Notes: a model not told the origin generated them from the letters alone. 64,000 nt of DNA from an uncultured Solirubrobacterales bacterium (GCA_963728835.1 CAVSKZ010000003.1:90923-154922), one strand, 5' to 3'. Shown: positions 6,313-42,335, numbered from the stretch's first letter. Numbers and translations: made by a program.

Positions 6313-7331
6313 TCCTCGCGATCGAGACCTCCTGCGACGACACCTGCGCGGCGCTGCTCGACGGGCCGCGCGTGCTCGCCAACACGATCTCCTCGCAGGC
6401 GGCTGCCCACGCCCAGTTCGGCGGCGTCGTGCCCGAGGTCGCCTCTCGCCACCACCTGGAGCTGGTGACCCCGGTCGTCGAGGCGGCCCTGGAGGCGGCC
6501 GGCGCCACGCTCGACGACGTCGGCTCGGTGGCCGTCACCGCCGGGCCGGGCCTGATCGGCGCGCTGCTGATCGGGGTGAGCACGGCGAAGGCGATCGCTG
6601 CCCCGCGCCGCCTGCCGCTGATCCCGGTCGACCACCTGCAGGGGCACGTCGCCGCCAACTTCCTCGAGCCCGAGCCGCTGCAGCCGCCCTTTCTCTGCCT
6701 CCTTGCCAGCGGCGGCCACACGCTGCTCGCCGCCGTGCGCGACCACGCCGGACACGAAGTGCTCGGCCAGACCCTCGACGACGCGGCGGGGGAGGCGTTC
6801 GACAAGGTCGCCCGCCTGCTCGGACTCGGCTATCCGGGCGGGCCGGCGCTGGAGAAGCTGGCCCGCGAAGGCGACCCCGCAGCGTTCGAGATGCCGGTGG
6901 CAATGAGCCGCGATCCCGGCCTCGACTTCAGCTTCAGCGGCCTGAAGACCGCCCTCGTCTACCTCTGCCGGGATCTCGGTCCCGACGGCGTGAGCGAGCG
7001 CCGCGCCGACCTGGCGGCCAGCTTCCAGGCCGCCGCCGTCGGCCAGCTCGTCGCCAAGCTCGAGCGCGCCCTGAAGCGCGGAGACTGGCAGGCCGTCGCC
7101 CTGGGCGGGGGCGTGGCCGCGAACGGGCCGCTGCGCGAGTCGGCGCGCGAGGCCTGCGAGCGCAACGGCGCCGCCCTAAAGCTGGTCGGGCTCGAGCTCT
7201 GCACGGACAACGCGGCGATGATCGGCTCCGCCGCTCGCTTCGCGGAGCCGATCCCCTATCCCGACTACCTCGCCTACGACGCCTTCGCCACCCGTAACCA
7301 CCCGCCGACGGGACGAAATCAGCCCGTATGA
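6300..7331 (+). CDS. tsaD: tRNA N6-adenosine threonylcarbamoyltransferase
   Basis: LAIETSCDDTCAALL, VASRHH, GPGLIGALLIG, VDHLQGH and LASGGHT motifs of Kae1/TsaD. Confidence 0.93.
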   Translation: MAGLILAIETSCDDTCAALLDGPRVLANTISSQAAAHAQFGGVVPEVASRHHLELVTPVVEAALEAAGATLDDVGSVAVTAGPGLIGALLIGVSTAKAIAAPRRLPLIPVDHLQGHVAANFLEPEPLQPPFLCLLASGGHTLLAAVRDHAGHEVLGQTLDDAAGEAFDKVARLLGLGYPGGPALEKLAREGDPAAFEMPVAMSRDPGLDFSFSGLKTALVYLCRDLGPDGVSERRADLAASFQAAAVGQLVAKLERALKRGDWQAVALGGGVAANGPLRESAREACERNGAALKLVGLELCTDNAAMIGSAARFAEPIPYPDYLAYDAFATRNHPPTGRNQPV

Positions 7332-11580: not shown

Positions 11581-11662
11581 TGGGAGGGGCCGGGTGGCCC
11601 CTCCCAAAACGCGCGGCAGGAGCCGCGCTTGAGTGTTTTGGGAGAGGCCACCCGGCCCCTCT
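11581..11662. repeat. nested palindromic element (three hairpins) downstream of hppA
   Basis: GGGAGGGGCC-GGGT-GGCCCCTCCC (11582-11605), GCGCGGC-AGGA-GCCGCGC (11611-11628), then an inverted near-copy of the first hairpin with its AAAAC flank (11635-11662). The first hairpin probably terminates hppA. Confidence 0.6.
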
Positions 11663-29515: not shown

Positions 29516-31750
29516 ATGAGCAGCGCAAGATCGAGCTACGACGCATCGACGATTGAGGCCGAGCGGCAGGCCGCGTGGGCGCAGGCCGACGCCTTCGCGA
29601 CGCCGGCGCCGGACGATGTGGGTCCCGGCCGGGGCGTCTACATCAAGCCCTCCAGCCCCTTCACCTCGGGCAAGCTGCACATGGGGCACGTTCGCGACTA
29701 CTCGATCGGCGACGCCTACGCCCGCTTCCGTCGCGCCCGGGGAGACGCCGTCCTCTTCGGCTTCGGCTTCGACGCGTTCGGCCTGCCGGCCGAGATGGCG
29801 GCGATCGAGCGCAAGGTCCCGCCGGCCGAGTGGGTGCAGGGCTGTGGCGAGCGGATGCTCGAGCAGATGAGGCGGCTCGGCTTCTCGTTCGACTACGACC
29901 GCGTCTTCTACAGCTCCGACGAGGAGCAGTACCGCTGGTCGCAGTGGCTCTTCCTCGTTCTTCTCGAGGCCGGCCTGATCTACCGCGACGACACGACCGT
30001 CGACTGGTGCGACAGCTGCCGCACGACGCTTGCCGCCCTGCAGGTTGAGGACGGACGCTGCTGGCGCTGCCACAACGAGGTCCGCCTGATCCGCCGGCCG
30101 ACCTGGTTCCTGCGCATCACGCCCTACCTGGAGGAGAACGACCGGAGCCTGCGCGAGCTCGAGGAGCGAGGCCACTGGGACGAGATCTCCCTCTCGACCC
30201 AGCGGTACATCCTCGGCCGCAGCGACGGGGTCGAGGTCGAGCTGGCCGGTCCGGACGGAAGCGACTTCGAGGCGTTCACGCCACACGGCGACGCGGTCGC
30301 GCAGGCGAGCTTCGTATTGATCTCCCCGCGCCACCCGAAGGTCGAGGCATGGGTAACCGACCCGGCCGTGCGGGAGCAGCTCGACGAGCTTCGCTCCGGC
30401 GGATGGGAGCGCAGCGCCCGCGACGCCAGGTCGGTGCCGGTCGTCGATGCCGGCGTCTCGGTGCCGGCGCCGTGGGCGGTGGATCCCCTGCCGGTCCTGG
30501 TCTCGCCGATCGTCGACGCCCGCTACGGGCCCACGGCGGCCCTCGGCATCCCCGCCGCCGACGAGGCGGATGCGGCGGTCGCGGAGCGTGTGCCGGGGCT
30601 GGGGGAGGGGGACGCGGCCGAGTCCGCCCCCGGGGCGCACCCCGACGCCCGGCAGACGGTCCGCTACCGAGCCGCGGACTTCTCGATCTCCCGTCAGCGC
30701 TTCTGGGGCACGCCGATCCCGATCGTCCACTGCGATGCGTGCGGGGCGGTGCCGGTGCCCGAGGAGGACCTGCCGGTCGTCCTGCCCCGCGACGTCGAGC
30801 CAACCGGCGAGGGCAATCCCCTGGCGGAGCTCGCCGCCTTCGTCGACGTGCCCTGCCCGCGGTGCGACGCGCCCGCCAGGCGTGAGACCGACACCCTCGA
30901 CTGCCACTTCGACGCGCTCTGGCTGTGGGTCCCGGCGGCGGTCCCGCCCGACGGCAGGGCCGAGTCCATGTTCGACCACCCGGAGCTGCGCACCTGGTTG
31001 CCGTCCGAGCGCCTCGTGGCCGGCTCCGACAGCGGCGGCTTCGTCTTCGACCAGCGCGTCGTGACCAAGGCCCTGCGGGACATCGGTCCCTTCGCGTTCA
31101 TGGCCGAGGGGGAGCCCTTCTCTGGGTGCCTCTTCCACGAGATGGTGATCGCCGACGGCCGCAAGATGAGCAAGCACCTGGGCAACGTCGTCGATCCCGA
31201 CGAGCTGGTCGAGCACTACGGCGCCGACACGGTGCGCCTCGCCATCCTCTATGCGGCGGGCCCGGCGAAGACGCTGAACTGGAACGACAGCGCCCTGCGC
31301 TTCGCCGACCGCTTCCTGCGCAACGTCTGGTCTTACTCGCAGAAGCGCTTCGAGGGCGTCGCGGCGGCGCCGGAGGACCCGGAGGCGGCCGAGGACACCG
31401 CGTTCATGCGGGAGCGCCTGTGCAAATGGGCCGACAACGGCCTGGCCCGGATCACCGCGGATCTCGAGCAGCTGCAGATGCACAAGGCGGTCCGCAACGT
31501 CACGCGCCTCTTCGAGCGTATCCAGGATTTCGAGAAGCGCGTCATCGCGCGTCGCGGAGAGCTGGGTCGCGCAGACGCGGAGGCCCAGGTCGCGGCCCTG
31601 CTCCTGCTTGCGAGAGCGCTCGCTCCCTTCGCGCCCCATGCCGGCGAGGCGCTTCTCCTCGCCGGCGGTGAGGACGCCGGCGAGCTCCCCGGCGCATGGC
31701 CGGAGAGGCTCGTCTTCCCGGCTGCCTCCTCGGGTGCCGGGACGCTCTAG
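29516..31750 (+). CDS. leuS: leucine--tRNA ligase, short form with divergent CP1 region
   Basis: PFTSGKLHMGHVRDY (HIGH), FGFDAFGLPAE, YRWSQWLF, DWCDSC..L....V.DGRCWRC zinc module, ISRQRFWGTPIP and RKMSKHLGNV (KMSKS variant). 744 aa. Confidence 0.85.
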   Translation: MSSARSSYDASTIEAERQAAWAQADAFATPAPDDVGPGRGVYIKPSSPFTSGKLHMGHVRDYSIGDAYARFRRARGDAVLFGFGFDAFGLPAEMAAIERKVPPAEWVQGCGERMLEQMRRLGFSFDYDRVFYSSDEEQYRWSQWLFLVLLEAGLIYRDDTTVDWCDSCRTTLAALQVEDGRCWRCHNEVRLIRRPTWFLRITPYLEENDRSLRELEERGHWDEISLSTQRYILGRSDGVEVELAGPDGSDFEAFTPHGDAVAQASFVLISPRHPKVEAWVTDPAVREQLDELRSGGWERSARDARSVPVVDAGVSVPAPWAVDPLPVLVSPIVDARYGPTAALGIPAADEADAAVAERVPGLGEGDAAESAPGAHPDARQTVRYRAADFSISRQRFWGTPIPIVHCDACGAVPVPEEDLPVVLPRDVEPTGEGNPLAELAAFVDVPCPRCDAPARRETDTLDCHFDALWLWVPAAVPPDGRAESMFDHPELRTWLPSERLVAGSDSGGFVFDQRVVTKALRDIGPFAFMAEGEPFSGCLFHEMVIADGRKMSKHLGNVVDPDELVEHYGADTVRLAILYAAGPAKTLNWNDSALRFADRFLRNVWSYSQKRFEGVAAAPEDPEAAEDTAFMRERLCKWADNGLARITADLEQLQMHKAVRNVTRLFERIQDFEKRVIARRGELGRADAEAQVAALLLLARALAPFAPHAGEALLLAGGEDAGELPGAWPERLVFPAASSGAGTL

Positions 31751-31768
31751 AGATTTGAACGAAAGTAG

Positions 31769-31797
31769 TTGACTGGTTGCTGTAAACCTGTTATGAA
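31769..31797 (+). promoter_or_regulatory. sigma-70-like promoter candidate (TTGACT-17 nt-TATGAA)
   Basis: TTGACT at 31769-31774, 17-nt spacer, TATGAA at 31792-31797. Same layout as 33055-33083. Confidence 0.5.
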
Positions 31798-31804
31798 TGG
31801 AATT

Positions 31805-32152
31805 GCTGACGATCAGCGCAGCGAAGAGGCGGGGTCCACTCAACGGAGGCTCGCCTGGCACGGCAAAGGGAGAGTCCGGTAAAGAGCCGCGACACGGCAT
31901 CGGCACACTCTGCTGACCCTTGTTGCCCCCGACCTCTTCCTGCGCACCTCTTGCGCGGCGGGTTGGATACCGCGCGCCGCGCTCCACTTTGAATTCCGGC
32001 CCGACGACTCTGGTCGCCGGGGTCTCGGGTCGCTCGCGGCGCAATTGCAAGGTGGTGAAACCGTTTGCCTCCGTCGCGCGTTCTTCCCTCCAGGGAGTAC
32101 CAGAAAAAGTATGTTGAGTTTTCTAATGGGCTTCGCGGGAAGGATGGTTTTA
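31805..32152 (+). promoter_or_regulatory. long structured 5' leader (riboswitch/attenuator-like, class unknown)
   Basis: About 350 nt of non-coding sequence. A long-range helix pairs GCGCAGCGAAGAGG (31816-31829) with CCTCTTCCTGCGC (31933-31945). A second CCTCTTGCGC copy (31947-31956) overlaps the 5' arm of the GC hairpin GCGCGGCG/CGCCGCGC (31953-31982), which is followed by TCCACTTTGAATT. Confidence 0.45.
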
Positions 32153-33019
32153 ATGGGAGAGCAAGGGAAGCTGAAGGCCGCGGCGCGCGACGTTGCACGG
32201 CTGGCGGCCAGTGAGAAGGCATTTTGGGCCGGGCTCTGGGAGACCCCGATCCAGGACGCGGTGCACGAGAGCGGGGTCGACGTCGTGCGTTTCGGCCCGA
32301 TCCATGCGGCATGCGTCGCGGAGGTGCCCAGGCATTCGGGGGTCAACTTCGTCCTCGGCGCCAGTGAGGCAGGCGCCGTTTCGCACGGACACCTGCGCGA
32401 TGCGGTCCGCTGGCTCGAGACCAGGCGCTCTGCATGGAGCGAGGATTGCGGCGTCGACTATCGCGTTCCCGTCATCCCCGGCCTGCCCGAGGCAGCCGAG
32501 GCGGAAGACTGGCTGCGGGAGCACGGGCACGTTCGCGACGAGGGAGTGGCGAAGCTGGTCCGCGACGCGACCGAGCCGCGGTTTTCCCCGGCGGCGGACA
32601 TCGAGGTGCTCGACTGGGAGGAGTGGGACGAAGGGTTCGCAGCCCCACTCGCCGAGAGCCTCGGCCTCTCGACGGCAGCCGAGATCTTCTTCCTCTGCCT
32701 GCTGGAAGAGGAGGACTGGCGTTGCTATTGCGGCATCATCGGCGACGACCCCCTCGCCTATGTCGCGATGCACGTCGGCGCCGGAGTGGCCTCGATCGCG
32801 CTGGCGTCCCGGCACTACGCGGGTCGCGGCGGAGAGGGACAGCTCGCTGTCCTGCATCGCTGCATGGAAGACGCGAGGGCGGAGGGCTGTGACGCGTTCG
32901 TCCTGGTCGACGCCGGTGGCGAATCGCCGGTGATCGATCGCGCGAGCCTCCTCCAGGCCGGCTTCGAAGTCGCCTACCGGGTGCCGAGCTGGCACAGCCC
33001 GGCACGGGTTGCGGCGTGA
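32153..33019 (+). CDS. hypothetical protein, possibly a two-domain GNAT-like acyltransferase
   Basis: Good GC3 with a GGAAGGA SD 9 nt before ATG 32153. The C-terminal half (YVAMHV...GRGGEGQLAVLHRCMEDARAEGCDAFVLV) loosely resembles the GNAT motif A region. Assignment is weak. Confidence 0.45.
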   Translation: MGEQGKLKAAARDVARLAASEKAFWAGLWETPIQDAVHESGVDVVRFGPIHAACVAEVPRHSGVNFVLGASEAGAVSHGHLRDAVRWLETRRSAWSEDCGVDYRVPVIPGLPEAAEAEDWLREHGHVRDEGVAKLVRDATEPRFSPAADIEVLDWEEWDEGFAAPLAESLGLSTAAEIFFLCLLEEEDWRCYCGIIGDDPLAYVAMHVGAGVASIALASRHYAGRGGEGQLAVLHRCMEDARAEGCDAFVLVDAGGESPVIDRASLLQAGFEVAYRVPSWHSPARVAA

Positions 33020-33054
33020 GCCTGCAACGGTCAGCCACTTTTGCGCAAAAAGAC

Positions 33055-33084
33055 TTGACTGGTAGCGGGAGCGTGTGTTATACG
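33055..33084 (+). promoter_or_regulatory. sigma-70-like promoter candidate overlapping a 9-bp DNA palindrome
   Basis: TTGACT (33055-33060), 17-nt spacer, TTATAC (33078-33083). The palindrome AGCGTGTGT-TATACGT-ACACACGCT (33070-33094) straddles the -10 hexamer. Confidence 0.45.
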
Positions 33085-33091
33085 TACACAC

Positions 33092-33491
33092 GCTGACGAC
33101 CAAGCGTTTGCGAAGAGGTGAGAAATCCCGGTCAGGGGCGACTCGCTTTGCGATGACTAAGGAGTTGTGTCGAGTCATGAGTCGAGAAGACGGACGTTTC
33201 GGGTGCAACACAAGGAAGGCAATGACGCTGCGCGCGCTGCCCCACCTCGAGCACGTAGCGCTGCCCCCCGTGACGGCCGTCTCGCCCTCTCACCCCTGGC
33301 AGCTAGGCCCTCGGAGAGGGGGGGCGGCCATATAGCTGGCCGAAGCGCAGGTTCTTAGCCGTGGCTGACCGAGGCCACGATGAATTTGGGCCCGTCCCCG
33401 CGGAACGTGACAGCCGCTCGGACGGGCCCAATTCCTTGCTGGGGGTGGCAGCGCCTTGGAGCGCCCAGTACCCTGCTCGGAGGAGACGTCG
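33092..33491 (+). promoter_or_regulatory. long structured 5' leader with several T-box-like features (unconfirmed)
   Basis: It starts with GCTGACGA..GCGAAGAGG as the 31805 leader does. It also has GCGATGA (33150) / TGACGC (33223) flanking GAAGGCAA, a 12-bp hairpin at 33386-33431, and CTGG-GGGTGGCA-GCGC-loop-GCGC-CCAG (33439-33468) just before the SD GGAGGAG. Confidence 0.4.
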
Positions 33492-34790
33492 ATGCTGAAC
33501 CCCGAGGACCGAACCCGCTCCTGCGCTACCGAACTGGTCTGCCGCGATTGCGGTCGCCGCCTGCCGCTTCTCGATACGACGTTCAAGTGCCTTGGCTGCG
33601 GCAACGGACTCGACATCGACTACGACTACGAGCTGGCCAGGGAGCGGCTCGGCGAGATCCCGCCGGCCGAGCGGGAGATCAACATCTGGCGCTTCGAGGA
33701 GCTGCTGCCGATCGTCGACGCGAGGGCCCAGGCGCGAGTCGGGCGCTACAGCGGGCGCACGCCGCTGATTCACGCCGACCGGCTCGGGGCGGAGCTGGGG
33801 CTGAAGAAGCTCTACCTAAAGGACGACAGCACCTCGCGCCCCAGCCTCTCTTACAAGGACCGTGTGGTCTCGATGGCGGTCGCCCGCCTGCTCGAGCTGG
33901 GCAAGGACGAGATCGGCTGCGTCTCTACCGGCAACGTCGGCACCGCCGTCTCCTCGCTGGCGTCCAAGGCCGGCGTCACCGCCTACGTCTTCTACCCGTC
34001 GAACATGGAGCGCGGAAAGGCGCGCGCCTGCCGGGCGCTCGGCGCCGCCGTCTGCCAGCTCGACGGCAACTACGACGAAGCCAACCGCGCCTGCCGCGAG
34101 CTTGCCCTCGCCAGCGGCATCCAGTTCGCCAACATCACCCTGCGGCCGTTCTACGCCGAGGGCGCGAAGACGGTCGCCTACGAGGTGGTCGAGCAGCTCG
34201 AGTGGGAGGCGCCCGACCACTTCGTCATCCCGGCCGCCGGCGGCACGCTCTCCTCGCGCGTGCACAAGGGGCTTGTCGAGCTCGAGACCGTGGGCCTGGC
34301 GGAGACCTCGGGGGTCAGGATCGACGTTGCCCAGGCAGAGGGCTGCAGCCCGATCGCAACGGCGATAAGCGACGGCTCGGGAGAGATCGAGCCGCAGACC
34401 CCGCACACGGCGGCGCACTCGATCGCGATCGGCGCGCCCGGCGACGGCCCGCTCGTGGTCGATGCGGTGACGTCGCGGGGTGGCAGCGCCGCGACGGCCA
34501 CTGACCGGGAGATCTTCGAGGCGATCGACCTGCTCGGCGCCACCGAGGGCATCCTCACCGAGCCCGCGGGCGGGACGACGATCGCCTGCACGGCCAAGCT
34601 CGCCAACGAAGGCAAGCTCGGTCCCGACGACACCGTCGTCGCGATCGTCAGCGGCAACGGCTACAAGACCCTCGACGAGCATCCCGACAAGCCCTGGGCC
34701 GAAGGCGTCGCCTGCGACGTCGACGCGATGGGCGAGATGCTCGAAGAGTTCCGCCAGCACGGCGTCGGCGCCACGCTGTCGGCTGATTGA
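33492..34790 (+). CDS. threonine synthase-like PLP enzyme with N-terminal zinc ribbon
   Basis: CRDCGRR...CLGCGNGLDIDYDY zinc ribbon, TPLI, DDSTSRPSLSYKDRV (PLP lysine), STGNVG and SGNGYK. ATG at 33492 is preceded by GGAGGAG. Confidence 0.8.
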   Translation: MLNPEDRTRSCATELVCRDCGRRLPLLDTTFKCLGCGNGLDIDYDYELARERLGEIPPAEREINIWRFEELLPIVDARAQARVGRYSGRTPLIHADRLGAELGLKKLYLKDDSTSRPSLSYKDRVVSMAVARLLELGKDEIGCVSTGNVGTAVSSLASKAGVTAYVFYPSNMERGKARACRALGAAVCQLDGNYDEANRACRELALASGIQFANITLRPFYAEGAKTVAYEVVEQLEWEAPDHFVIPAAGGTLSSRVHKGLVELETVGLAETSGVRIDVAQAEGCSPIATAISDGSGEIEPQTPHTAAHSIAIGAPGDGPLVVDAVTSRGGSAATATDREIFEAIDLLGATEGILTEPAGGTTIACTAKLANEGKLGPDDTVVAIVSGNGYKTLDEHPDKPWAEGVACDVDAMGEMLEEFRQHGVGATLSAD

Positions 34791-34824: not shown

Positions 34825-36564
34825 ATGTTCGCCTACGGCGATGGAAAGTTCGTGCCGGCGGATTTCCCGCCCCCGGTCGAGCCGCGCGAGGAGTTCGTCA
34901 AGCGCTCGCTCGACGGCGAGGACGAGCGGATCGAGATCGGCGTCGCGATCGTCGGCGGCGGCACCGCCGGACTCGCCTGCGCCAACCGCCTGCTGCAGCT
35001 CCTGGCAGACGATCCGGAGACGATGGAGCGCCTCGGCGAGGTCCCGGTCGCCGTGATCGAGAAGGCGAAGACCTGTGGTGGCCACAACCTCTCCGGGGCG
35101 GTGATGCGGCCCGGGCCGCTGCAGGAGCTCTTCCCGGAGATGAGCCGGGAGCAGTGGCGCCAGGAGGGCTTTGCCTTCGGCGAGGTGAAGAAGGAGGCGA
35201 TCTACCTCCTGCCCAGCGCCAAGACCAAGATCCGCATCCCGCCGCCCCCGCCGCAGCGCAACCACGGCAACGAGGTGATCTCGGTCGCCGCCCTCTGCCG
35301 CCACATGCAGCGTCAGGCCGAGGAGGCGGGCGCCTACCTGCTGACCGAGACCGCGGCCACGCAGCTGATCGTCTCCGACGGCGCCGTCGTCGGCGTCCGC
35401 TCCGGCGACAAGGGCCGCGGCAAAGACGGCGAGGAGCTCGGCAACTTCGAGCCGGGGACCGACATCGCTGCCAGGGCGACCGTCCTCGCCGAGGGCTGCT
35501 GGGGCCACCTCACCGACGCCGCGGTGCGCGAGTTCGGCCTCGACGAGGGCCGCGAGCCGCAGGTCTGGGAGCTGGGCGTGAAAGAGGTCTGGAAGGTGCC
35601 CAAGCCGCTGGACCGCGTGATCCACACGCTGGCCGGCTGGCCGCTGAAGATCTCCGCGAAGCACCACCAGATCGGCGGCTCCTGGATCTACCCGATGGTG
35701 GACGAGAAGACGGGCGAGGACCTGGTCTCGATCGGCTTCGTCCTCGACCTCGACTACGCCGACGCGACCAGCTCCGCCCACGACTTCCTGCAGCAGTTCA
35801 AGACCCACCCGATGGTGCGCGACATCCTCGAGGGCGGGGAGCGCGTCAGCTGGGGCGCCAAGGCGATCCCGGCGGGCGGGTACTGGGCGATGCCGAAGCT
35901 CTCGATGCCCGGTGCCGCGATCGTCGGCGACGCCGCCGGCATGGTCAACCTGGCTGCGCTGAAGGGCGTCCACTACGCGATCAAGGCGGGGATGCTCGCG
36001 GCGGAGCAGATCCACGCCGCGCTTCGGGCCGGCAGCGACGACTTCTCCGGATACGAGCAGGCGGTCGAGGACTCGATCATCCGCAAGGACCTCTACGAGC
36101 AGCGCAACACCCGCCAGCCCTTCCAGAAGGGCTTGCTCAAAGGCGGCCCCCTGGTCAACCTGATGATCGCCACCAAGGGCCGCTTCCCCGGCGGCCGCTG
36201 GAAGCTGCACCGCAACGACGCCCAGCCGATGTTCGTCGGCGAGACCAGGGACGGCTACCCCCAGCCCGACGGCAAGCTCACCTTCGACAAGCTCTCCAGC
36301 GTCTTCATCACCGGCAACGCCACCCGCGACGACGCCCCCAACCACATCCGCGTCCAGAAGCGGGTCCCCCGCGAGATCGCCGAGACCTGGAAGTGGATGT
36401 GCCCCGCCGGCGTCTACGAGATCCCCGACGACGCCCCGGAGACCGGCGACGTCGACGTGATCGTCAACTACACCAACTGCGTCCAGTGCGGCGCGATCAC
36501 GGCCAAGGGCGGCCGCCTGACGACGCCCGAGGGCGGCGACGGGCCGCTGTACCAGAACACCTGA
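34825..36564 (+). CDS. electron-transfer flavoprotein:quinone oxidoreductase (ETF-QO)
   Basis: VAIVGGGTAGLACA FAD motif, GGHNLSGAV, AEGCWG, GGSWIYP and C-terminal 4Fe-4S ligands (WKWMCPAGVY...NCVQCGAI). Confidence 0.88.
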   Translation: MFAYGDGKFVPADFPPPVEPREEFVKRSLDGEDERIEIGVAIVGGGTAGLACANRLLQLLADDPETMERLGEVPVAVIEKAKTCGGHNLSGAVMRPGPLQELFPEMSREQWRQEGFAFGEVKKEAIYLLPSAKTKIRIPPPPPQRNHGNEVISVAALCRHMQRQAEEAGAYLLTETAATQLIVSDGAVVGVRSGDKGRGKDGEELGNFEPGTDIAARATVLAEGCWGHLTDAAVREFGLDEGREPQVWELGVKEVWKVPKPLDRVIHTLAGWPLKISAKHHQIGGSWIYPMVDEKTGEDLVSIGFVLDLDYADATSSAHDFLQQFKTHPMVRDILEGGERVSWGAKAIPAGGYWAMPKLSMPGAAIVGDAAGMVNLAALKGVHYAIKAGMLAAEQIHAALRAGSDDFSGYEQAVEDSIIRKDLYEQRNTRQPFQKGLLKGGPLVNLMIATKGRFPGGRWKLHRNDAQPMFVGETRDGYPQPDGKLTFDKLSSVFITGNATRDDAPNHIRVQKRVPREIAETWKWMCPAGVYEIPDDAPETGDVDVIVNYTNCVQCGAITAKGGRLTTPEGGDGPLYQNT

Positions 36565-36618
36565 GCGCGCCTTTCTGGCGAAGCTTCTTGTCTGCAGCTT
36601 AGTCTAAGCTCGTGGACC

Positions 36619-36852
36619 GTGATCAGGCTCGTCTCATTTCGCATCGCGCTATTCGCGGTCCCTGCTGCGGCGGTCGCCGGCCTCATGCTTTTGCTGAACG
36701 GTCTCGATGCAAGCGCGGGTATCGCCGTAGCTGCTTTTGGGGTGGTCGCCGTCGCGACTGGCACCGCACTTGGTTACTTCGCCGAATGCCTCCCTGAGCT
36801 TCCTCGGGTTCGTCGACATCATCGCCTTGCTGGCATTCATCACGGCGACTGA
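36619..36852 (+). CDS. small two-TM membrane protein (hypothetical, weak)
   Basis: 77-aa ORF with two hydrophobic helices and mixed GC3. It lies at the left edge of the low-GC islet. Confidence 0.3.
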   Translation: MIRLVSFRIALFAVPAAAVAGLMLLLNGLDASAGIAVAAFGVVAVATGTALGYFAECLPELPRVRRHHRLAGIHHGD

Positions 36853-36959
36853 GGCGTGGCTGTTGTCGCCGGGCAAAGCAGTCCGGTTGGCAAGTCCGTT
36901 TCGGGCCCACTAAAAAGCCCGAGCGTGAACTCGTCGTCCTCTAGTCTGCGTTCTCGGTT

Positions 36960-38082
36960 ATGCCAGTGAAATTCGGACTGTGGCGAGTCGACGGCGAGTC
37001 AATCGAGCGGGTTCCGACGAGCGGCGTTGCCAGCGAGGAGCGCCTGGAGGACATCCTTGAGGCGCGCATCGATCGGTCGACAGGTCGTCACCGACTTCGG
37101 CAAGCGCATCGACCTGTTGGCTATCGACGGCCAGGGTGACCTGCACGTCATCGAGCTGAAGAAGGACCGAACGCCGAGAGAGGTCGTAGCGCAGGCGCTG
37201 GAGTATGGGTTCTGGGTCCAGGGCCTCTCCTTCGAGGCCATCCGCGAGCTCTACGCGAAGCATCACGACGGAGAGGACTTCGACTCGGCATTCACCAGCC
37301 ACTTCGAGTCTGAAATCCCGGAGGCGGTCAACACAAGCCACCAGCTCGTCGTCGTCGCAACCGGAATGGATGCCAGCACTGAGCAGATCGTCGAGTACGT
37401 GCGCGGCTACGGCGTGCCGATCAATGTCCTGTTCTTCGAGTACCTCGCCGATGGTGGCCGCGAGTATCTGGCACGCTCGTGGCTCACCGACCCCGAGCTT
37501 GAGTCGTCAAGCAAAAGCGGCGGCAAGAAGCAGGCGCCTTGGAACGGCGTTGACTTCTTTGTCGCCGTGGGAGAGAACAACGAGAGGAACTGGGACGACA
37601 TGGTCCGCTACGGCTTTGTATCTGCCGGGCACGGAGACAAATACCGCAAGGCGATGGAGAGCCTCTTCGAGGGCGCCCGTGTTTGGGCTGCGATCCCAAG
37701 TAGCCGCGCCACGGGAGGCGCTCATGGCTATGTCGGGGTGGGCCGGGTGACGGCGCCTGCCGTCGGCGTGAACGACTTCGATGTTGAAGTCGCAGGCGCG
37801 ACTGTGAACGTCCTCCAAGCGCCGTTGGAGGCTACCAACATGGGCTGGGATGCCGATGACCCTCAGTTGTGCGAGTACCTCGTCAGGGTCGAGTGGATGA
37901 ATACTCGCCCCCGGGAGAAGGCGGTGTGGGAGAAGGGCATGTTCGCCAACCAGAATGTCGTGGCGAGGTTGCGGCAGCCGTTTACCTTGCAATGCCTCAA
38001 TGAAGTTTTCGATCTCGAAGAAGGGCTGGCGGACCCAGGGGTCACGCCCACGGCGGATAACAAGGAGTCGTTGAGCACATAG
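36960..38082 (+). CDS. PD-(D/E)XK (NucS/DUF91-like) nuclease fused to an EVE/PUA-like domain; 1-nt indel near 37065-37080
   Basis: MPVKFGLWRVDGESIERV...EERLEDILEARI | IGRQVVTDFGKRIDLLAIDGQGDLHVIELKKDRTPREVVAQALEYGFWV forms the nuclease core. The C-terminal WNGVDFFVAVGE...RYGFVSAGHGDKYRKAMESLFEGARVWAAIP...GYVGVGRVT resembles UPF0310/EVE domains. Confidence 0.65.
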
Positions 38083-38121
38083 CGCAGAGCCCCTGCCAAT
38101 CTGATTCCGCTTGCTGCTGCC

Positions 38122-38163
38122 ATGCCCGAGGAGGACTCGAACCCCCGACACGCGGATTACGAT
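38122..38163 (-). repeat. duplicated 3' half of tRNA-Met (att remnant)
   Basis: It aligns to 41229-41271 with 40 identical positions of 43 columns (one gap), counted by eye, from the anticodon loop to the acceptor end. No 5' half is present, so it is not a functional tRNA. Confidence 0.75.
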
Positions 38164-38290
38164 GGGCGACACGCAGGGGGTCTGACGGTTCTGGGAGCGG
38201 CTCTCAGCACGCCCCCCGGTTGTCGGGAATTCGCGCAAATCGGGTATTCGCGGTCGTAGGCCGTCCGGTCGAAGGGCTAGTCTCGCCCAG

Positions 38291-38515
38291 ATGAATGAGG
38301 CGAGCAGCAGCGAAGTCGAGAAGGTTCTTCTCTTCGTATCGGATGCGCGCGACCGGGCTGGCAAAGCGCGGGCTCGGCTACAGGCGGACGGTGCCGACCA
38401 GCATTTGATCGAGGCCTTGGAGCGCGCCGAGGCGTCGCTGGCCGAGACTCACCGCGACCTCATGCAGGGCACCTACTTCGCGGTGCCACGGCGCGAAAAG
38501 CAGCTCGCTCTCTAG
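38291..38515 (+). CDS. hypothetical 74-aa helical protein upstream of the MmeI-like gene
   Basis: The ORF ends 6 nt before the GTG of the MmeI-like gene. No motif recognised. Confidence 0.4.
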   Translation: MNEASSSEVEKVLLFVSDARDRAGKARARLQADGADQHLIEALERAEASLAETHRDLMQGTYFAVPRREKQLAL

Positions 38516-38521
38516 AAAGTC

Positions 38522-41270
38522 GTGTTGATCACCGGCGAGGAGATTCGCCGTCGCCTGACCGGGTTCGTCGAGAAGTGGTCGTCCTACCAGGGCTCCGAGC
38601 GCGCCGAGGCCCAAACCTTCCTCAACGAGCTTTTCGGCTGCTTTGGCACCGACCGTCAGGAGGTCGCCCGCTTCGAGGACCCTCAGCACAGAAGGTTCCT
38701 TGACCTGATCTGGGACCGTGTCTGCATCGTCGAGATGAAGCGGCCCAGCGAGGCTCAAAGGCTCGATCAGCATCGCCCTCAGGCGTTCGGCTATTGGCGA
38801 AATGCGGCCGACCCCGATCGCAACCTCCCGGCGCCCAGATGGCTCGTCCTCTGCGCATTCAGGCGATTCGAGATCTGGGAGCCAGGGTCGTTTCCCAATG
38901 AGCCACGAGCTGAATTCGAGCTTGGCGAACTTCCCGACCGACTCGACTCACTTCTGTTCTTGGCCGGCAGAGAACCCGTTTTCCTGTCGTTTCAGGAGGC
39001 GGTGACTCGCGAAGCGGTCAAGCATGTGACGGACCTTTACGCGGGGCTGCGCGAGCGTCGTGCGGCTGACTCAGATGTCTTGCGACTTCGTCCTGCAGAG
39101 CGTCTGGTGCATGTTCGCCGAGGACCTCGGCCAGCTCGAAGGCCATCTCTATACCCGTATCGTCGACGAGCTTCTGGCCAATCCGCAGCGATCGAGCGCG
39201 GATGACCTGGGTGGTCTATTTCGATGGCTCAATACGCCAGGGAACCGGCCCGACGGGGGGTTCTACGCCGAGACCCGATATGTGAACGGCGGACTTTTCG
39301 CTCATCCGGCTTTGGTTCATCTGGCGTCCGAGGAGTTGGAGCAGCTTCGCTCTGCCTGCGAGTTCAACTGGAAGCGCGTCGAGCCCCACATCTTCGGGTC
39401 GCTCCTGGAGGGGGCGCTTGGCCGAGAGTCCCAATGGATTCTCGGTGCCCACTACACGCACACGGTGGACATCATGAAGGTCATCGGTCCAAGCATCGTC
39501 GTTCCCTGGCGTGAGCGAATCGAGAACGCGGATACCGTCCGGCAGGCTCAGCAGCTTCAAAACGAGTTGCTCAACTACGTGGTACTCGATCCGGCCTGCG
39601 GCTCCGGGAATTTCCTCTACATCGCCTACCGCGAGTTGCGCCAGATCGAGAAGAGACTGAGGGTGCGGGAGCGGGAGCTGCGCCGCGAGTCCGGCATGCC
39701 CGACGCCGACGCGCTGAGTGCCTTCTTTCCGCTGCGGAATATTGCGGGGATTGAGATCAACGCTTTCGCCGTGGCGCTTGCGCGGGTCACGCTGTGGATG
39801 GGGCACAAGCTTGCGGTCGATGAACTTGATCTAGCCGAGTCCACCCTGCCGCTTGAGGATCTCGGCGGAATTCAGGCCGGCGATGCGCTCAGGATGCCTT
39901 GGCCGAGATGTGACGTAATCGTCAGTAATCCACCGTTCCACGGAGATCGAAACCTTCGTGGACTGCTCGGTGACGATTACGTCGAGTGGCTCAAAGAGGA
40001 GTTCGGCTGTGGCGTCAAAGATCACTGTGTCTACTGGTTTCGCATGGCGCAGGATCATCTGGAGCCTGGGCAGAGGGCTGGGATGGTCGGCACCAACTCG
40101 ATCAGCCAGAACCGAGCGCGGGGCGCGAGCCTCAACTACATCGTCGAATCCGGCGGGGTCATCATCGACGCCATCAGCTCGCAGGATTGGCCCGGGGGGG
40201 CAAACGTCGACGTCAGCATCGTCAACTGGATCAAGGGTCCTCTTTCGAACGAGCCACAGCGGGTTCTGGACGAGCGGCACGTCGATGGAATCGACACCGC
40301 CCTTCGGTCGTCGACGATTCCAGTTGCCGATGTTCCTCCGCTCAGCGCTAATCGGAACTTCGCGTTCCAGGGTTTCCTGCCCGGAGCAAAGTTCGACATT
40401 CCGGGTGAGGTGGCAGAGGAGCTGCTCGGACTGACGGATGCCGCGTACTCCGACGTCGTCTTGCCGTACCTGGATGGCCGAGACATTGCGCGGACGGTGG
40501 ATCAGCGGCCGACCCGCTACACGATTGACTTCGCACAGATGGAGCTGGAGGAAGCAATGCGCTACCCGGCGGCCCTTGAGATCGTCAGGGACCAGGCGAA
40601 GGACGCCAGGGAGTCGAGCAACTCCTACTCTCGAAATCCGCGCTGGTGGCAGTTTCTCTGGCCCCGGCCGGATTTCCGAGAGCGTGCGGCGGGTCTTCAG
40701 CGCTTTATTGCAGGCTCGGCCACAGCTAAGCGCATTTTCTTTATCTGGTGCGATCTGGGCTGGCGTCCGAGCAACAGCACCAACATCTTTGCCTTCGATT
40801 CCGATTACGCAATTGCTGTCTTGAGCTCGGCGATACATACGGAATGGGCGGGGGGACGTTCATCCACGCTTGAGGATCGCATCCGTTACACACCCAGCTC
40901 CGCATTCGAGACGTTTCCTTGGCCGTCCGTAGACGCGACCGAAGCCGGCGCCATCGGAGATGCCGGGCGGGCACTGCTTGCTCGACGCAGTGAGATCTGC
41001 AACGAAGCCGAGATCGGCCTCAACGAGCTTTACAACCGGCACGAGGAAGGCGCCTGGTCTGATTTGGGCGAATTGCATCGCCAGCTTGACCAGGCCGTGT
41101 TGAGCGCCTATGGCTGGAGTGATATCGGCGTCGATGACAACGTTGCCGTCAATCAGAGGCTCTTTGCCCTAAGCCGCGCGATTCAAGGCGGCCATGTCGA
41201 ATATGCCGGGCCGAACGCTGCCAATGCGATGCCGGAGGAGGGACTCGAACCCCCGACACGCGGATTATGA
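38522..41270 (+). CDS. MmeI-family type IIL restriction-modification enzyme (endonuclease + N6-adenine methyltransferase + TRD); 1-nt indel near 39080-39086
   Basis: N-terminal D-x9-E-x-K (DLIWDRVCIVEMK), helical spacer (CMFAEDLG), MTase motif I VLDPACGSGNFL and motif IV VSNPPF, followed by a long TRD/C-terminal region. The last codons read through the tRNA 3' half. The track splits it into 38522..39205 and 39060..41270. Confidence 0.8.
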
Positions 41271-41303
41271 TTCCGCTGCTCTAACCAGCTGAGCTACTCC
41301 GGC
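41230..41303 (-). tRNA. tRNA-Met (anticodon CAT), elongator type (a tRNA-Ile2 identity cannot be excluded)
   Basis: Hand-folded: acceptor GCCGGAG/CTCCGGC, D arm GCTC-AGCTGGTTA-GAGC, anticodon stem GCGGA/TCCGC with loop AT-CAT-AA, T arm GGGGG-TTCGAGT-CCCTC, discriminator A. It lacks initiator features. Confidence 0.88.
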
Positions 41304-41387: not shown

Positions 41388-42335
41388 ATGACGCAGGAGC
41401 TGGACAGGGCGGTGAGGACGGTTCTGCGGGATTGCCTGCGGATCGAACCTGGCGAAGAGGTGCTGGTGATCTGCAACCCGGTCACCGAGGACATCGGCGC
41501 CCTGATGCGGATCGAGGCCGAGGGGGATGGGGCGTTCGCCACCCTTGCGGTGATCTCCGAGCTCGACTCCAACGGGGCCGAGCCGCCGACGCCGGTCGCG
41601 GCTGCGATGGTCGCCGCCGAAGTCGTGCTGGCGCCGACGATCCAGTCGCTCTCCCACACCAACGCGCGCCGCGCCGCGACCCAGGCGGGTGTGCGGATCG
41701 CGACGCTGCCGGGCGTGACCGAGGACATGCTGGCACGGCTGATGAACGCCGACATGCGCACCCTGCGGCGGCGAGGAGCGGCGATTGCGGCCGCGCTGCG
41801 CAGCGGCGAGGAGGCGCGGATCACCTGCCGGCACGGCAGCGACCTGCGGCTCGGGCTGAAGGACCGGATCCCGATCGCCGACGCCGGCGTGCTCAACGCT
41901 CCGGGCGCATTCGGCAACCTGCCCTGCGGAGAGGCCTTCGTCGCTCCCACCACCGCCGAGGGGACGCTGGTCGTCGACGGCTCGATCGCCGGCGTGGGAA
42001 AGGTCGAGACCCCGGTCGAGCTGACTGTGCGCGACGGTCACCTGATCGACGCGACCGGCCCCGAGGGCGCGGCGCTGCTCGAAATGCTGACCCTGCACGG
42101 CGAGGACGGCACCAACGTCGCCGAGCTGGGCATCGGCACCAACGAAGAGGCCACTTTGACCGGCAACATCCTCGAGGACGAGAAGATCCTCGGCACCGCC
42201 CACGTCGCCTTCGGCGCCTCGGCTGCGATCGGCGGCACCGTCCAGGTCCCCGTCCACCTCGACTGCGTGATCGTCGAGCCGACCGTGGAAGTGGACGGCA
42301 AGGAGATCGTCCGCGGCGGCCAGCTGCTCGTCTGA
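41388..42335 (+). CDS. M29-family aminopeptidase-like protein
   Basis: GNLPCGEAFVAP, VVDGSI and LGIGTN..A.LTGNILEDEKILGTAHVAFG resemble aminopeptidase T / NicX-like proteins. Confidence 0.6.
   Translation: MTQELDRAVRTVLRDCLRIEPGEEVLVICNPVTEDIGALMRIEAEGDGAFATLAVISELDSNGAEPPTPVAAAMVAAEVVLAPTIQSLSHTNARRAATQAGVRIATLPGVTEDMLARLMNADMRTLRRRGAAIAAALRSGEEARITCRHGSDLRLGLKDRIPIADAGVLNAPGAFGNLPCGEAFVAPTTAEGTLVVDGSIAGVGKVETPVELTVRDGHLIDATGPEGAALLEMLTLHGEDGTNVAELGIGTNEEATLTGNILEDEKILGTAHVAFGASAAIGGTVQVPVHLDCVIVEPTVEVDGKEIVRGGQLLV

Follow-up and report, generated by a model that had tools for sequence, protein, structure and literature searches.

A tRNA-Met-anchored islet with disrupted nuclease genes in an integration and defence hotspot of Solirubrobacterales

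Introduction

Tyrosine integrases can insert genomic islands into tRNA genes at their 3' part, as is the case with the pSAM2-type integrative elements of actinomycetes. Williams reportedly described in 2002 several sublocation classes of such tRNA-targeting integrases, and the block of identity that they leave is expected to end in the anticodon loop. In the present study, we analyzed a stretch of 64,000 nucleotides from an uncultured Solirubrobacterales bacterium (GCA_963728835.1 CAVSKZ010000003.1:90923-154922; the whole stretch is called the window below). Between the ETF-QO gene and the M29-family aminopeptidase gene of the window lies a low-GC islet that carries nuclease genes and ends at a tRNA-Met(CAT) gene. 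An earlier reading of the sequence alone, called the original prediction here, had proposed this islet as the best candidate in the window for an uncharacterised defence module.

The islet resembles the pSAM2-type islands in several respects. An intact tRNA gene marks one end, and the other end carries a direct repeat of the tRNA from its anticodon loop to the 3' terminus; the composition is atypical, the empty site is found in a relative, accretion in tandem occurs at one tRNA, and integrase-bearing versions occupy the same attB. It differs from them in having neither integrase nor excisionase, in that its scar and arm are degraded, and in that it consists of a relic of about 3 kb together with an apparently older fragment of 1.2 kb. 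The concept of defence hotspots between conserved core genes comes from studies of Pseudomonas, E. coli and P2/P4. As in those hotspots, the flanks here are conserved (ETF-QO, tRNA-Met and M29) and the cargo differs from genome to genome and is largely of the defence type. The difference is that the present hotspot belongs to uncultured Solirubrobacterales and is anchored on a tRNA attB which is used by at least five families of elements.

As regards the cargo, one gene of the islet has the complete domain order of the MmeI-family type IIG/IIL enzymes. It differs from these in that its reading frame is broken between nuclease and spacer and its C-terminus is replaced, that is, it does not encode a single uninterrupted polypeptide. 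In its clade the enzyme gene is moreover always preceded by a gene for a 74-aa helical hairpin, which to our knowledge is not part of the described MmeI family. The other gene matches PDC-S11, a candidate system of the PADLOC database. Modification-dependent restriction enzymes are known in which a PUA-superfamily reader (EVE, YTH or SRA) is fused to a nuclease (PMC6765204, PMC7897488, PMC7641849). PDC-S11 appears to share with these enzymes the combination of a nuclease and a PUA-like reader, and also the defence-island context. However, the characterised enzymes are mostly EVE-HNH or SRA-HNH fusions, whereas PDC-S11 is predicted to have an N-terminal PD-(D/E)XK domain of the NucS/SduA kind and a C-terminal reader, and the copy in the window is disrupted.

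Results and discussion

A displaced half of tRNA-Met inside a low-GC islet

Our reading, to which we give a probability of roughly 0.8, is that positions 36565-41229 of the window are a decaying islet without an integrase, lying in a tRNA-Met hotspot of a Solirubrobacterales lineage. ARAGORN detected two tRNAs in the window, and one of them is the tRNA-Met(CAT) at the same coordinates and on the same strand as in the original prediction (Table 1). A repeat finder showed an ungapped direct repeat of part of this tRNA, 38133-38163 against 41241-41271, in which 30 of 31 positions were identical. With one gap, the repeat becomes 38122-38163 against 41229-41271 with 40 of 43 columns identical, exactly the figure that had been counted by eye. 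The repeated block runs from the 3' end of the tRNA to two bases beyond the anticodon. Its three differences from the tRNA are C/G at 38127, a 1-nt deletion in a GGAGGAGGG run, and C/T at 38159, which is an anticodon position. The 27-nt core of the repeat is present in two copies in the window, while none is expected from 100 shuffles. A short match that the original prediction had noticed just outside the repeat (GCTGCC..ATGCC) corresponds to a weaker match of about 19 nt past the 3' end of the tRNA (38103-38121 against 41213-41228).

The GC content across 36500-41250 was 0.60-0.64, as compared with about 0.69-0.71 in the flanks, and position 36901 is the start of the 4.3-kb segment with the lowest GC anywhere in the window (0.616; the window median is 0.699). 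The islet genes also have a lower GC content at third codon positions (GC3), 0.73-0.80, than ETF-QO and M29, where it is 0.91-0.97. The original prediction had described all DNA from ETF-QO to the tRNA as low in GC. The foreign composition was borne out, but the leftmost 340 nt (36565-36904) are common to relatives and lie outside the genome-specific insert.

As had also been predicted, neither a Pfam search of both strands nor tblastn with the integrases of relatives detected an integrase, excisionase or transposase in the islet. Pseudogene fragments of an integrase were likewise not found in the islet or in the rest of the window, where no tblastn hit was better than E = 0.5 (at 13.5 kb). 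The antisense open reading frames (ORFs) of the islet (285, 335, 196, 131, 127 and 98 aa) gave no credible Pfam match.

The same tRNA is a hotspot in relatives

A scan with ETF-QO gave 80 loci from metagenome-assembled genomes (MAGs) of Solirubrobacterales, which are designated here by L numbers. In 21 of them the order of ETF-QO, tRNA-Met on the minus strand, and M29 is conserved. The gap between ETF-QO and the tRNA in these syntenic loci ranges from 43 nt to 9.9 kb. L001 represents the empty site, with only 43 nt from the ETF-QO stop codon to the tRNA; the original prediction had proposed that such a site be looked for in related genomes. In L003 the gap holds only a homologue of orf77, a small ORF at the left edge of the islet, and the remaining gaps each contain a different cargo, with GC below that of the flanks in all but L037. 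PDC-S11 and the MmeI gene were found in none of the 21 syntenic loci. The cargo of the relatives is largely of the defence type, namely TIR (PDC-S35), RelA-SpoT (PDC-S33), AbiU/AIPR, Dsr1-like proteins, HNH nucleases and Gp49/helix-turn-helix (HTH) toxin-antitoxin pairs, and it also includes DUF6414, a DDE transposase and Schlafen-like proteins. Throughout this lineage of Solirubrobacterales, the ETF-QO/tRNA-Met/M29 interval serves as a hotspot for integration and defence. It is well defined and holds both known and candidate defence genes, which makes it a good place to mine for new systems in this clade.

The 27-nt core was then located in 91 loci (1.66 Mb in total). Every occurrence was either the tRNA itself or an additional copy and, except in L009, lay downstream of ETF-QO in the same orientation. 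Extra copies were present in L006, L008, L012, L018, L019, L028, L035, L042, L081 (two copies) and L082, and diverged copies in L004, L013 and L087. The scars lie at about 12998 in L006, 12149 in L012, 18747 in L019, 15252 in L028, 16722 in L035, 13704 in L042 and 3941 in L008. Five relatives encode a tyrosine integrase no more than about 1.3 kb from the scar. Two of these matched Pfam Phage_integrase (E = 2e-20 in L012 and 4e-19 in L042), and those of L006, L028 and L035 were found by tblastn. L087 has an integrase fragment, and L012 also has a replication-relaxase gene. Beyond the scar the arms fall into at least five families, which leave the tRNA sequence directly after GATTATGAT (anticodon loop) or 5 nt later, and several arms contain short tandem repeats resembling arm-type sites, for example two copies of GGGGACACA or two copies of GGGTGCGCGG.

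Since the same attB is scarred in many relatives and integrases lie beside the scar in five of them, the comparison supports the reading of the repeat in the window as an att-type scar of integration into tRNA-Met. This is the attL/attR-type footprint that the original prediction had recognised. One might suppose instead that no site-specific integration took place, that the repeat is a local partial duplication of the tRNA or a dispersed repeat, and that the cargo was turned over only by homologous recombination through the flanks. The left module of the islet, which contains PDC-S11, has no scar of its own, and its boundaries (36904 and 38105) are those of a different cargo in L004, just as flank-mediated replacement would give. 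However, the block of identity ends in the anticodon loop in every arm family, and the integrases beside the scar refute this explanation as the sole mechanism. We therefore regard it as very improbable, although homologous replacement may contribute to turnover in the left slot. A dispersed tRNA-derived repeat family, which the original prediction had named as a finding that would speak against integration, was rejected: over the 1.66 Mb the core was confined to the tRNA-Met site, as tRNA or as scar.

A 7.8-kb element was observed between scar and tRNA in L042 (13740-21547). It encodes an integrase, an excisionase-like protein and a major capsid protein of the HK97 type, and is a very small prophage or satellite-like element.

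Both nuclease genes are disrupted

The MmeI gene of the window is split over two ORFs, 38522-39205 (227 aa) and 39060-41270 (736 aa). Taken together, these contain the full domain order of an MmeI-family type IIG enzyme in Pfam, that is, the MmeI_N nuclease, the MmeI_hel spacer, the MmeI_Mtase domain (N6-adenine) and the target recognition domain MmeI_TRD. The PADLOC profile REase_MTase_IIG (PDLC03599) matched with E = 4.8e-173. The family named in the original prediction was therefore correct. Compared with L081, L082 and L083, the gene has a 2-nt deletion at 39083/39084 (CTGCGCGAC to TTGCGAC), which cuts the nuclease domain off from the rest of the protein. Compared with the same three loci, the last 5 or so native codons are replaced by read-through into the tRNA, and the stop codon is at 41268-41270.

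PDC-S11 is also split over two ORFs, 36960-37139 (59 aa) and 37027-38082 (351 aa), and the PADLOC profile PDLC04916 matched them in two frames with E = 2e-125. All six intact homologues (363-383 aa, 86-89% identical) contain the sequence ILGLGNLFQ, at which the window has a gap and a change of frame. Comparison with the DNA of L087 and L088 shows that 29 nt have been deleted here, with ATCG microhomologies on either side.

Both nuclease genes are disrupted, PDC-S11 by the 29-nt deletion and the MmeI gene by the 2-nt deletion and by fusion of its 3' end to the tRNA flank. The original prediction had missed that both large genes are split. The islet probably no longer restricts, and we infer that it can no longer excise. 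The 736-aa ORF with methyltransferase and target recognition domains might retain a predicted activity as an orphan methyltransferase.

The remainder of the MmeI gene is well preserved. It is 92% identical to intact homologues of 903 aa, and its motifs D...ExK, DPACGSG and NPPF are intact. The ratio of nonsynonymous to synonymous substitution rates (dN/dS) between the window gene and intact homologues was 0.096-0.100, and that between two intact genes was 0.115. At otherwise invariant sites, the window gene has 6 changes unique to it. The corresponding number is 4-12 for the five closer intact homologues, and 28 for L090 and 85 for L089, the two distant ones. Since the catalytic motifs and the dN/dS value are unchanged, the lesion is recent, or possibly an error or a minority allele.

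These results bring up the possibility that the islet is an intact and working pair of defence systems, and that the frame breaks are assembly or consensus artefacts or minority alleles. Two points weigh against our own reading here. The 2-nt deletion sits in a GCGCG run, a short GC repeat, and could be an assembly error or a minority allele; and the absence of relaxed selection in the MmeI gene fits an error or minority allele as well as it fits a recent inactivation. Also, the closest relatives are MAGs, and the window, too, is probably from a MAG or a metagenome. On the other side, the 29-nt deletion in PDC-S11 is flanked by microhomology, unlike a typical sequencing error, the native 3' end of the MmeI gene is lost as well, and the arm beside the scar is also truncated. 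In about 7.8 kb of flanking backbone compared with L004, no indel lies within ETF-QO or M29, and the others have lengths divisible by three or are located in intergenic DNA or at the ends of genes. These indels were placed by reading their coordinates against the ORF list, and L004 is a short-read MAG as judged from its contig names. Because the flanking genes are clean against L004, the lesions are unlikely to reflect general assembly quality. The closest matches to the window genes were 96% identical for ETF-QO, 92% for MmeI and 92% for orf74. Taken comprehensively, an intact islet seems improbable to us.

The proposal that the islet is a candidate for an uncharacterised defence module does not hold, since one of its two large genes is PDC-S11 and the other a type IIG restriction-modification (R-M) gene, each with the strong profile match given above. 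The islet is an ordinary degraded tRNA-anchored islet with nuclease genes of known kinds. In itself it is a textbook tRNA-anchored scar with decayed restriction genes, and it adds mainly an example from a poorly studied soil lineage.

Putative history of the two modules

Elements with tyrosine integrases would recombine their attP with the tRNA segment from the anticodon loop to the 3' end. Such recombination would restore a complete tRNA at one junction (41230-41303), and the original 3' half, together with the chromosomal sequence beside it, would end up at the far junction (38103-38163). Such an event may have left the right module, 38164-41229, as its relic, in which only a truncated arm and a two-gene operon, orf74-MmeI, remain. 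The integrase, part of the arm and the stretch from the MmeI gene to the tRNA would since have disappeared from it. The left module, 36905-38104, would be a truncated fragment of older cargo that consists of the tail of an HTH gene and PDC-S11.

The flank TTCCGCTTGCTGCTGCC adjoins the intact tRNA in L002, L004, L005, L011, L012, L013, L018 and L026, and it adjoins the scar in L042 and L028. Since the scar in the window keeps this flank, which adjoins the intact tRNA in eight relatives, the scar would be the displaced original 3' half and the right module the later arrival. The arm beside the scar in the window is shortened by a deletion of about 90 nt; that is, the distal part with two copies of GGGTGCGCGG, which relatives have kept, is gone.

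At the left edge, homology with most relatives stops at 36564-36569, which is the end of ETF-QO. Homology with L004 continues to 36904 and starts again at 38105, and thus orf77 is shared and the left cargo specific to the window is 36905-38104. Homology with the cassette of L087 begins at 36900. The HTH fragment corresponds to the last 16 or so codons of the gene and stands directly upstream of PDC-S11. In L087, at the same hotspot, the order is a Gp49 (HigB-like) toxin gene, a complete HTH gene and an intact PDC-S11. Because only the tail of this HTH gene is left in the window and the gene is complete in L087, the left module is considered to be a truncated piece of a larger island.

The original prediction had suggested two successive insertions at the same tRNA. 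This is plausible, as an intact tandem exists in L081, where the order is scar, Dsr1-like module, scar with arm, orf74-MmeI, 1.4 kb of small genes, and tRNA-Met. However, only the right module is bounded by the repeat, and the left module is a truncated fragment, for which a Smith-Waterman scan for a second, degraded scar gave nothing above the shuffle maximum. The two tRNA-half scars of L081 (79-4117) flank genes for a Dsr1-like protein of 926 aa and a protein of 227 aa with a weak match to a pPIWI-associated nuclease (Aga nuclease).

Several facts weigh against parts of this history. The left module, having no scar of its own, is compatible with arrival either by integration or by flank-mediated replacement. 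In the arm family shared by the window, L018, L081, L082 and L087 there is no instance with an intact integrase, and orf74-MmeI may therefore not have come in with this element. The orf74-MmeI cassette also occurs away from tRNA-Met, in L083, L084/85, L089 and L090.

It is also conceivable that the 3.07-kb right module is a minimal satellite-like element which would be excised and moved in trans by integrases of other elements at tRNA-Met. Direct repeats enclose the module, several elements with integrases insert at this attB in relatives, and the cassette is found in several genomic contexts, all of which would suit such an element. But three positions separate the scar from the tRNA; they include one at the anticodon, which falls within the likely crossover region, and a 1-nt deletion. 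The arm, too, has lost the repeated GGGTGCGCGG sites. The 64-kb window has no integrase, and the cassettes elsewhere (L083, L084, L089 and L090) are without att copies. In addition, the cassette and the backbone show similar identity to the window (85.5% and 90% for L081; 77.5% and 80-83% for L082), and this similar divergence fits vertical descent. We consider the chance that such a satellite exists here to be slight. The original prediction had left open whether the cassettes are stranded remnants or are mobilised in trans; with three differences in the scar and a truncated arm, the stranded remnant is the better of the two.

orf74, a small gene paired with MmeI

In each of the nine contexts examined (the window, L081-L086, L089 and L090), a gene for 74 aa precedes the MmeI homologue by 7-19 nt, over a range of enzyme identity from 68% to 89%. 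The conservation of orf74 matches that of the enzyme (58-92% identity), and the gene is about 77-92% identical in L081-L083. Its GC pattern is of the coding type. The protein is represented by only 32 clusters in a collection of 5.8 billion proteins, and orf74 had no match in Pfam, PADLOC, NCBIfam or PHROGs. The AlphaFold2 (AF2) model is a confident two-helix hairpin followed by a conserved QGTYFAVP tail. In the PDB no fold match below E = 0.5 was obtained, and only generic hairpins such as Rop and designed bundles appeared. The idea that orf74 is a controller (C) protein of R-M systems, or an HTH protein, was rejected, because the model is a hairpin with a tail and no HTH family matched.

A conserved TAGTCT is located about 10 nt ahead of the orf74 start codon in four genomes, which suggests that the operon may be transcribed as a leaderless message. 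We tentatively propose, at somewhat less than even odds, that orf74 is an undescribed functional partner (a regulator, an assembly factor or an inhibitor) of the enzymes of a narrow actinobacterial MmeI clade, and that these enzymes are thus two-component. If this is true, R-M enzymes regarded as single polypeptides would really be two-component systems. The gene offers a cheap and testable lead, and could be an accessory factor of an enzyme family of commercial and mechanistic importance. orf74 is the sole new item of the islet, and the hotspot and the orf74-MmeI pairing are the parts worth following.

Domain architecture of PDC-S11

No Pfam domain was found at E <= 1 in the intact PDC-S11 homologue P0155, and none in the fragments of the window; the Pfam EVE family (PF01878) was likewise undetectable by sequence in either. 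When the AF2 model of P0155 was compared by Foldseek, the N-terminal domain matched the PD-(D/E)XK nucleases SduA, NucS/EndoMS, SfsA and HamA. The C-terminal domain, which has a predicted local distance difference test score (pLDDT) of 82-95, matched 2p5d (E = 3e-4), 1wmm (E = 7.5e-4) and the YTH domain of Mmi1 (probability 0.94-0.97). We take 1wmm and 2p5d to be structures of the EVE family. The model thus supports, at fold level only, a putative fusion of a PD-(D/E)XK nuclease to an EVE/YTH-like reader domain. The PD-(D/E)XK-EVE fusion of the original prediction accordingly stands as a fold match of the model and not as a sequence match to Pfam EVE. A nuclease fused to such a reader suggests that PDC-S11 may be a modification-dependent, type IV-like nuclease. 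A preprint on H-NS silencing aside, in which PDC-S11 is mentioned six times, we found no direct experimental test of PDC-S11 in the literature; one paper gives only a correlation, in haloarchaea.

Features, flanks and further observations

The features of the interval are listed in Table 1.

Table 1. Features of the ETF-QO/tRNA-Met/M29 interval in window coordinates, with orf74 copies in the coordinates of each relative
Feature	Position	Strand	Evidence
ETF-QO gene, conserved left flank of the hotspot	34912..36564	+	80 homologous loci, 80-96% aa identity
orf77, small hydrophobic ORF, GC3 0.59	36619..36852	+	tblastn and blastn matches in L003, L004, L018, L087
3' terminal fragment of XRE/HigA-like HTH gene, left edge of window-specific cargo	36905..36952	+	aligns to 3' end of L087 HTH gene (6652-6990) and to C-terminus of L002 13891-14280
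PDC-S11, N-terminal fragment, residues 1-39, followed by the 29-nt deletion	36960..37076	+	PDLC04916 positions 1-36 of 358; alignment to intact homologues
PDC-S11, remainder in other frame: PD-(D/E)XK core (IDLLAID...VIELKK) and predicted C-terminal EVE/YTH-like domain	37077..38082	+	PDLC04916 positions 46-356 of 358; AF2/Foldseek of P0155
Conserved tRNA-downstream flank TTCCGCTTGCTGCTGCC beside displaced tRNA half	38103..38121	.	comparison with relatives
Displaced tRNA-Met segment, from the anticodon loop through the 3' end, att scar	38122..38163	-	40/43 identical to 41229-41271
Element arm beside scar (GGGCGACACGCAGGGGGTCTGACGG...CTCTCAG)	38164..38207	.	common to L018, L081, L082, L087
orf74, conserved helical-hairpin gene, possible partner of the MmeI clade	38291..38515	+	precedes MmeI homologue in 9/9 contexts; AF2 pLDDT 85
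MmeI-family gene, N-terminal nuclease domain part, ends at the 2-nt deletion	38522..39083	+	Pfam MmeI_N E = 1.7e-22; PDLC03599 positions 4-182 of 959
MmeI-family gene, helical spacer, N6-methyltransferase and target recognition domain, shifted frame	39084..41270	+	Pfam MmeI_hel, MmeI_Mtase, MmeI_TRD; PDLC03599 positions 187-910 of 959
Intact tRNA-Met(CAT), elongator type	41230-41303	-	ARAGORN; G1:C72 pairing at the end seen by eye; second copy of the repeat is the 3' part, 41229-41271
M29-family aminopeptidase gene, conserved right flank	41388..42335	+	tblastn 75-98% identity in syntenic loci; Pfam Peptidase_M29/NicX on L087 homologue
orf74 copies in relatives	L081 4334-4558; L082 7767-7991; L083 762-986; L084 9765-9989; L086 2032-2256; L089 3758-3982; L090 5770-5994		

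The true start of ETF-QO may lie upstream of the listed one, as the ORF opens at 34480. orf77 gave no family match in Pfam, PADLOC, NCBIfam or PHROGs, and its reading frame is preserved in comparison with L004. Its position relative to the scar varies: the scar precedes it in L018 but follows it in L087 and in the window.

Two more dips in GC were seen upstream of the islet, at 31750-32250 (0.606) and 33000-33500 (0.634), where relatives align weakly (65-70%).

In some relatives a YjbQ-family gene replaces ETF-QO between the PALP gene and the hotspot (L086 1-1456, L087 1011-1427), so the hotspot has a left flank that also varies within the clade. In a group of sister MAGs (L007, L014, L016, L017, L020-L022, L024, L025, L027, L030, L032-L034, L038 and L047), whose loci were read downstream of position 11650, ETF-QO is followed at 0.85 to 8.6 kb by a tRNA-Arg(TCT). 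The presence of this tRNA in place of tRNA-Met suggests that the sister group has a second variable tRNA-anchored slot at the equivalent place.

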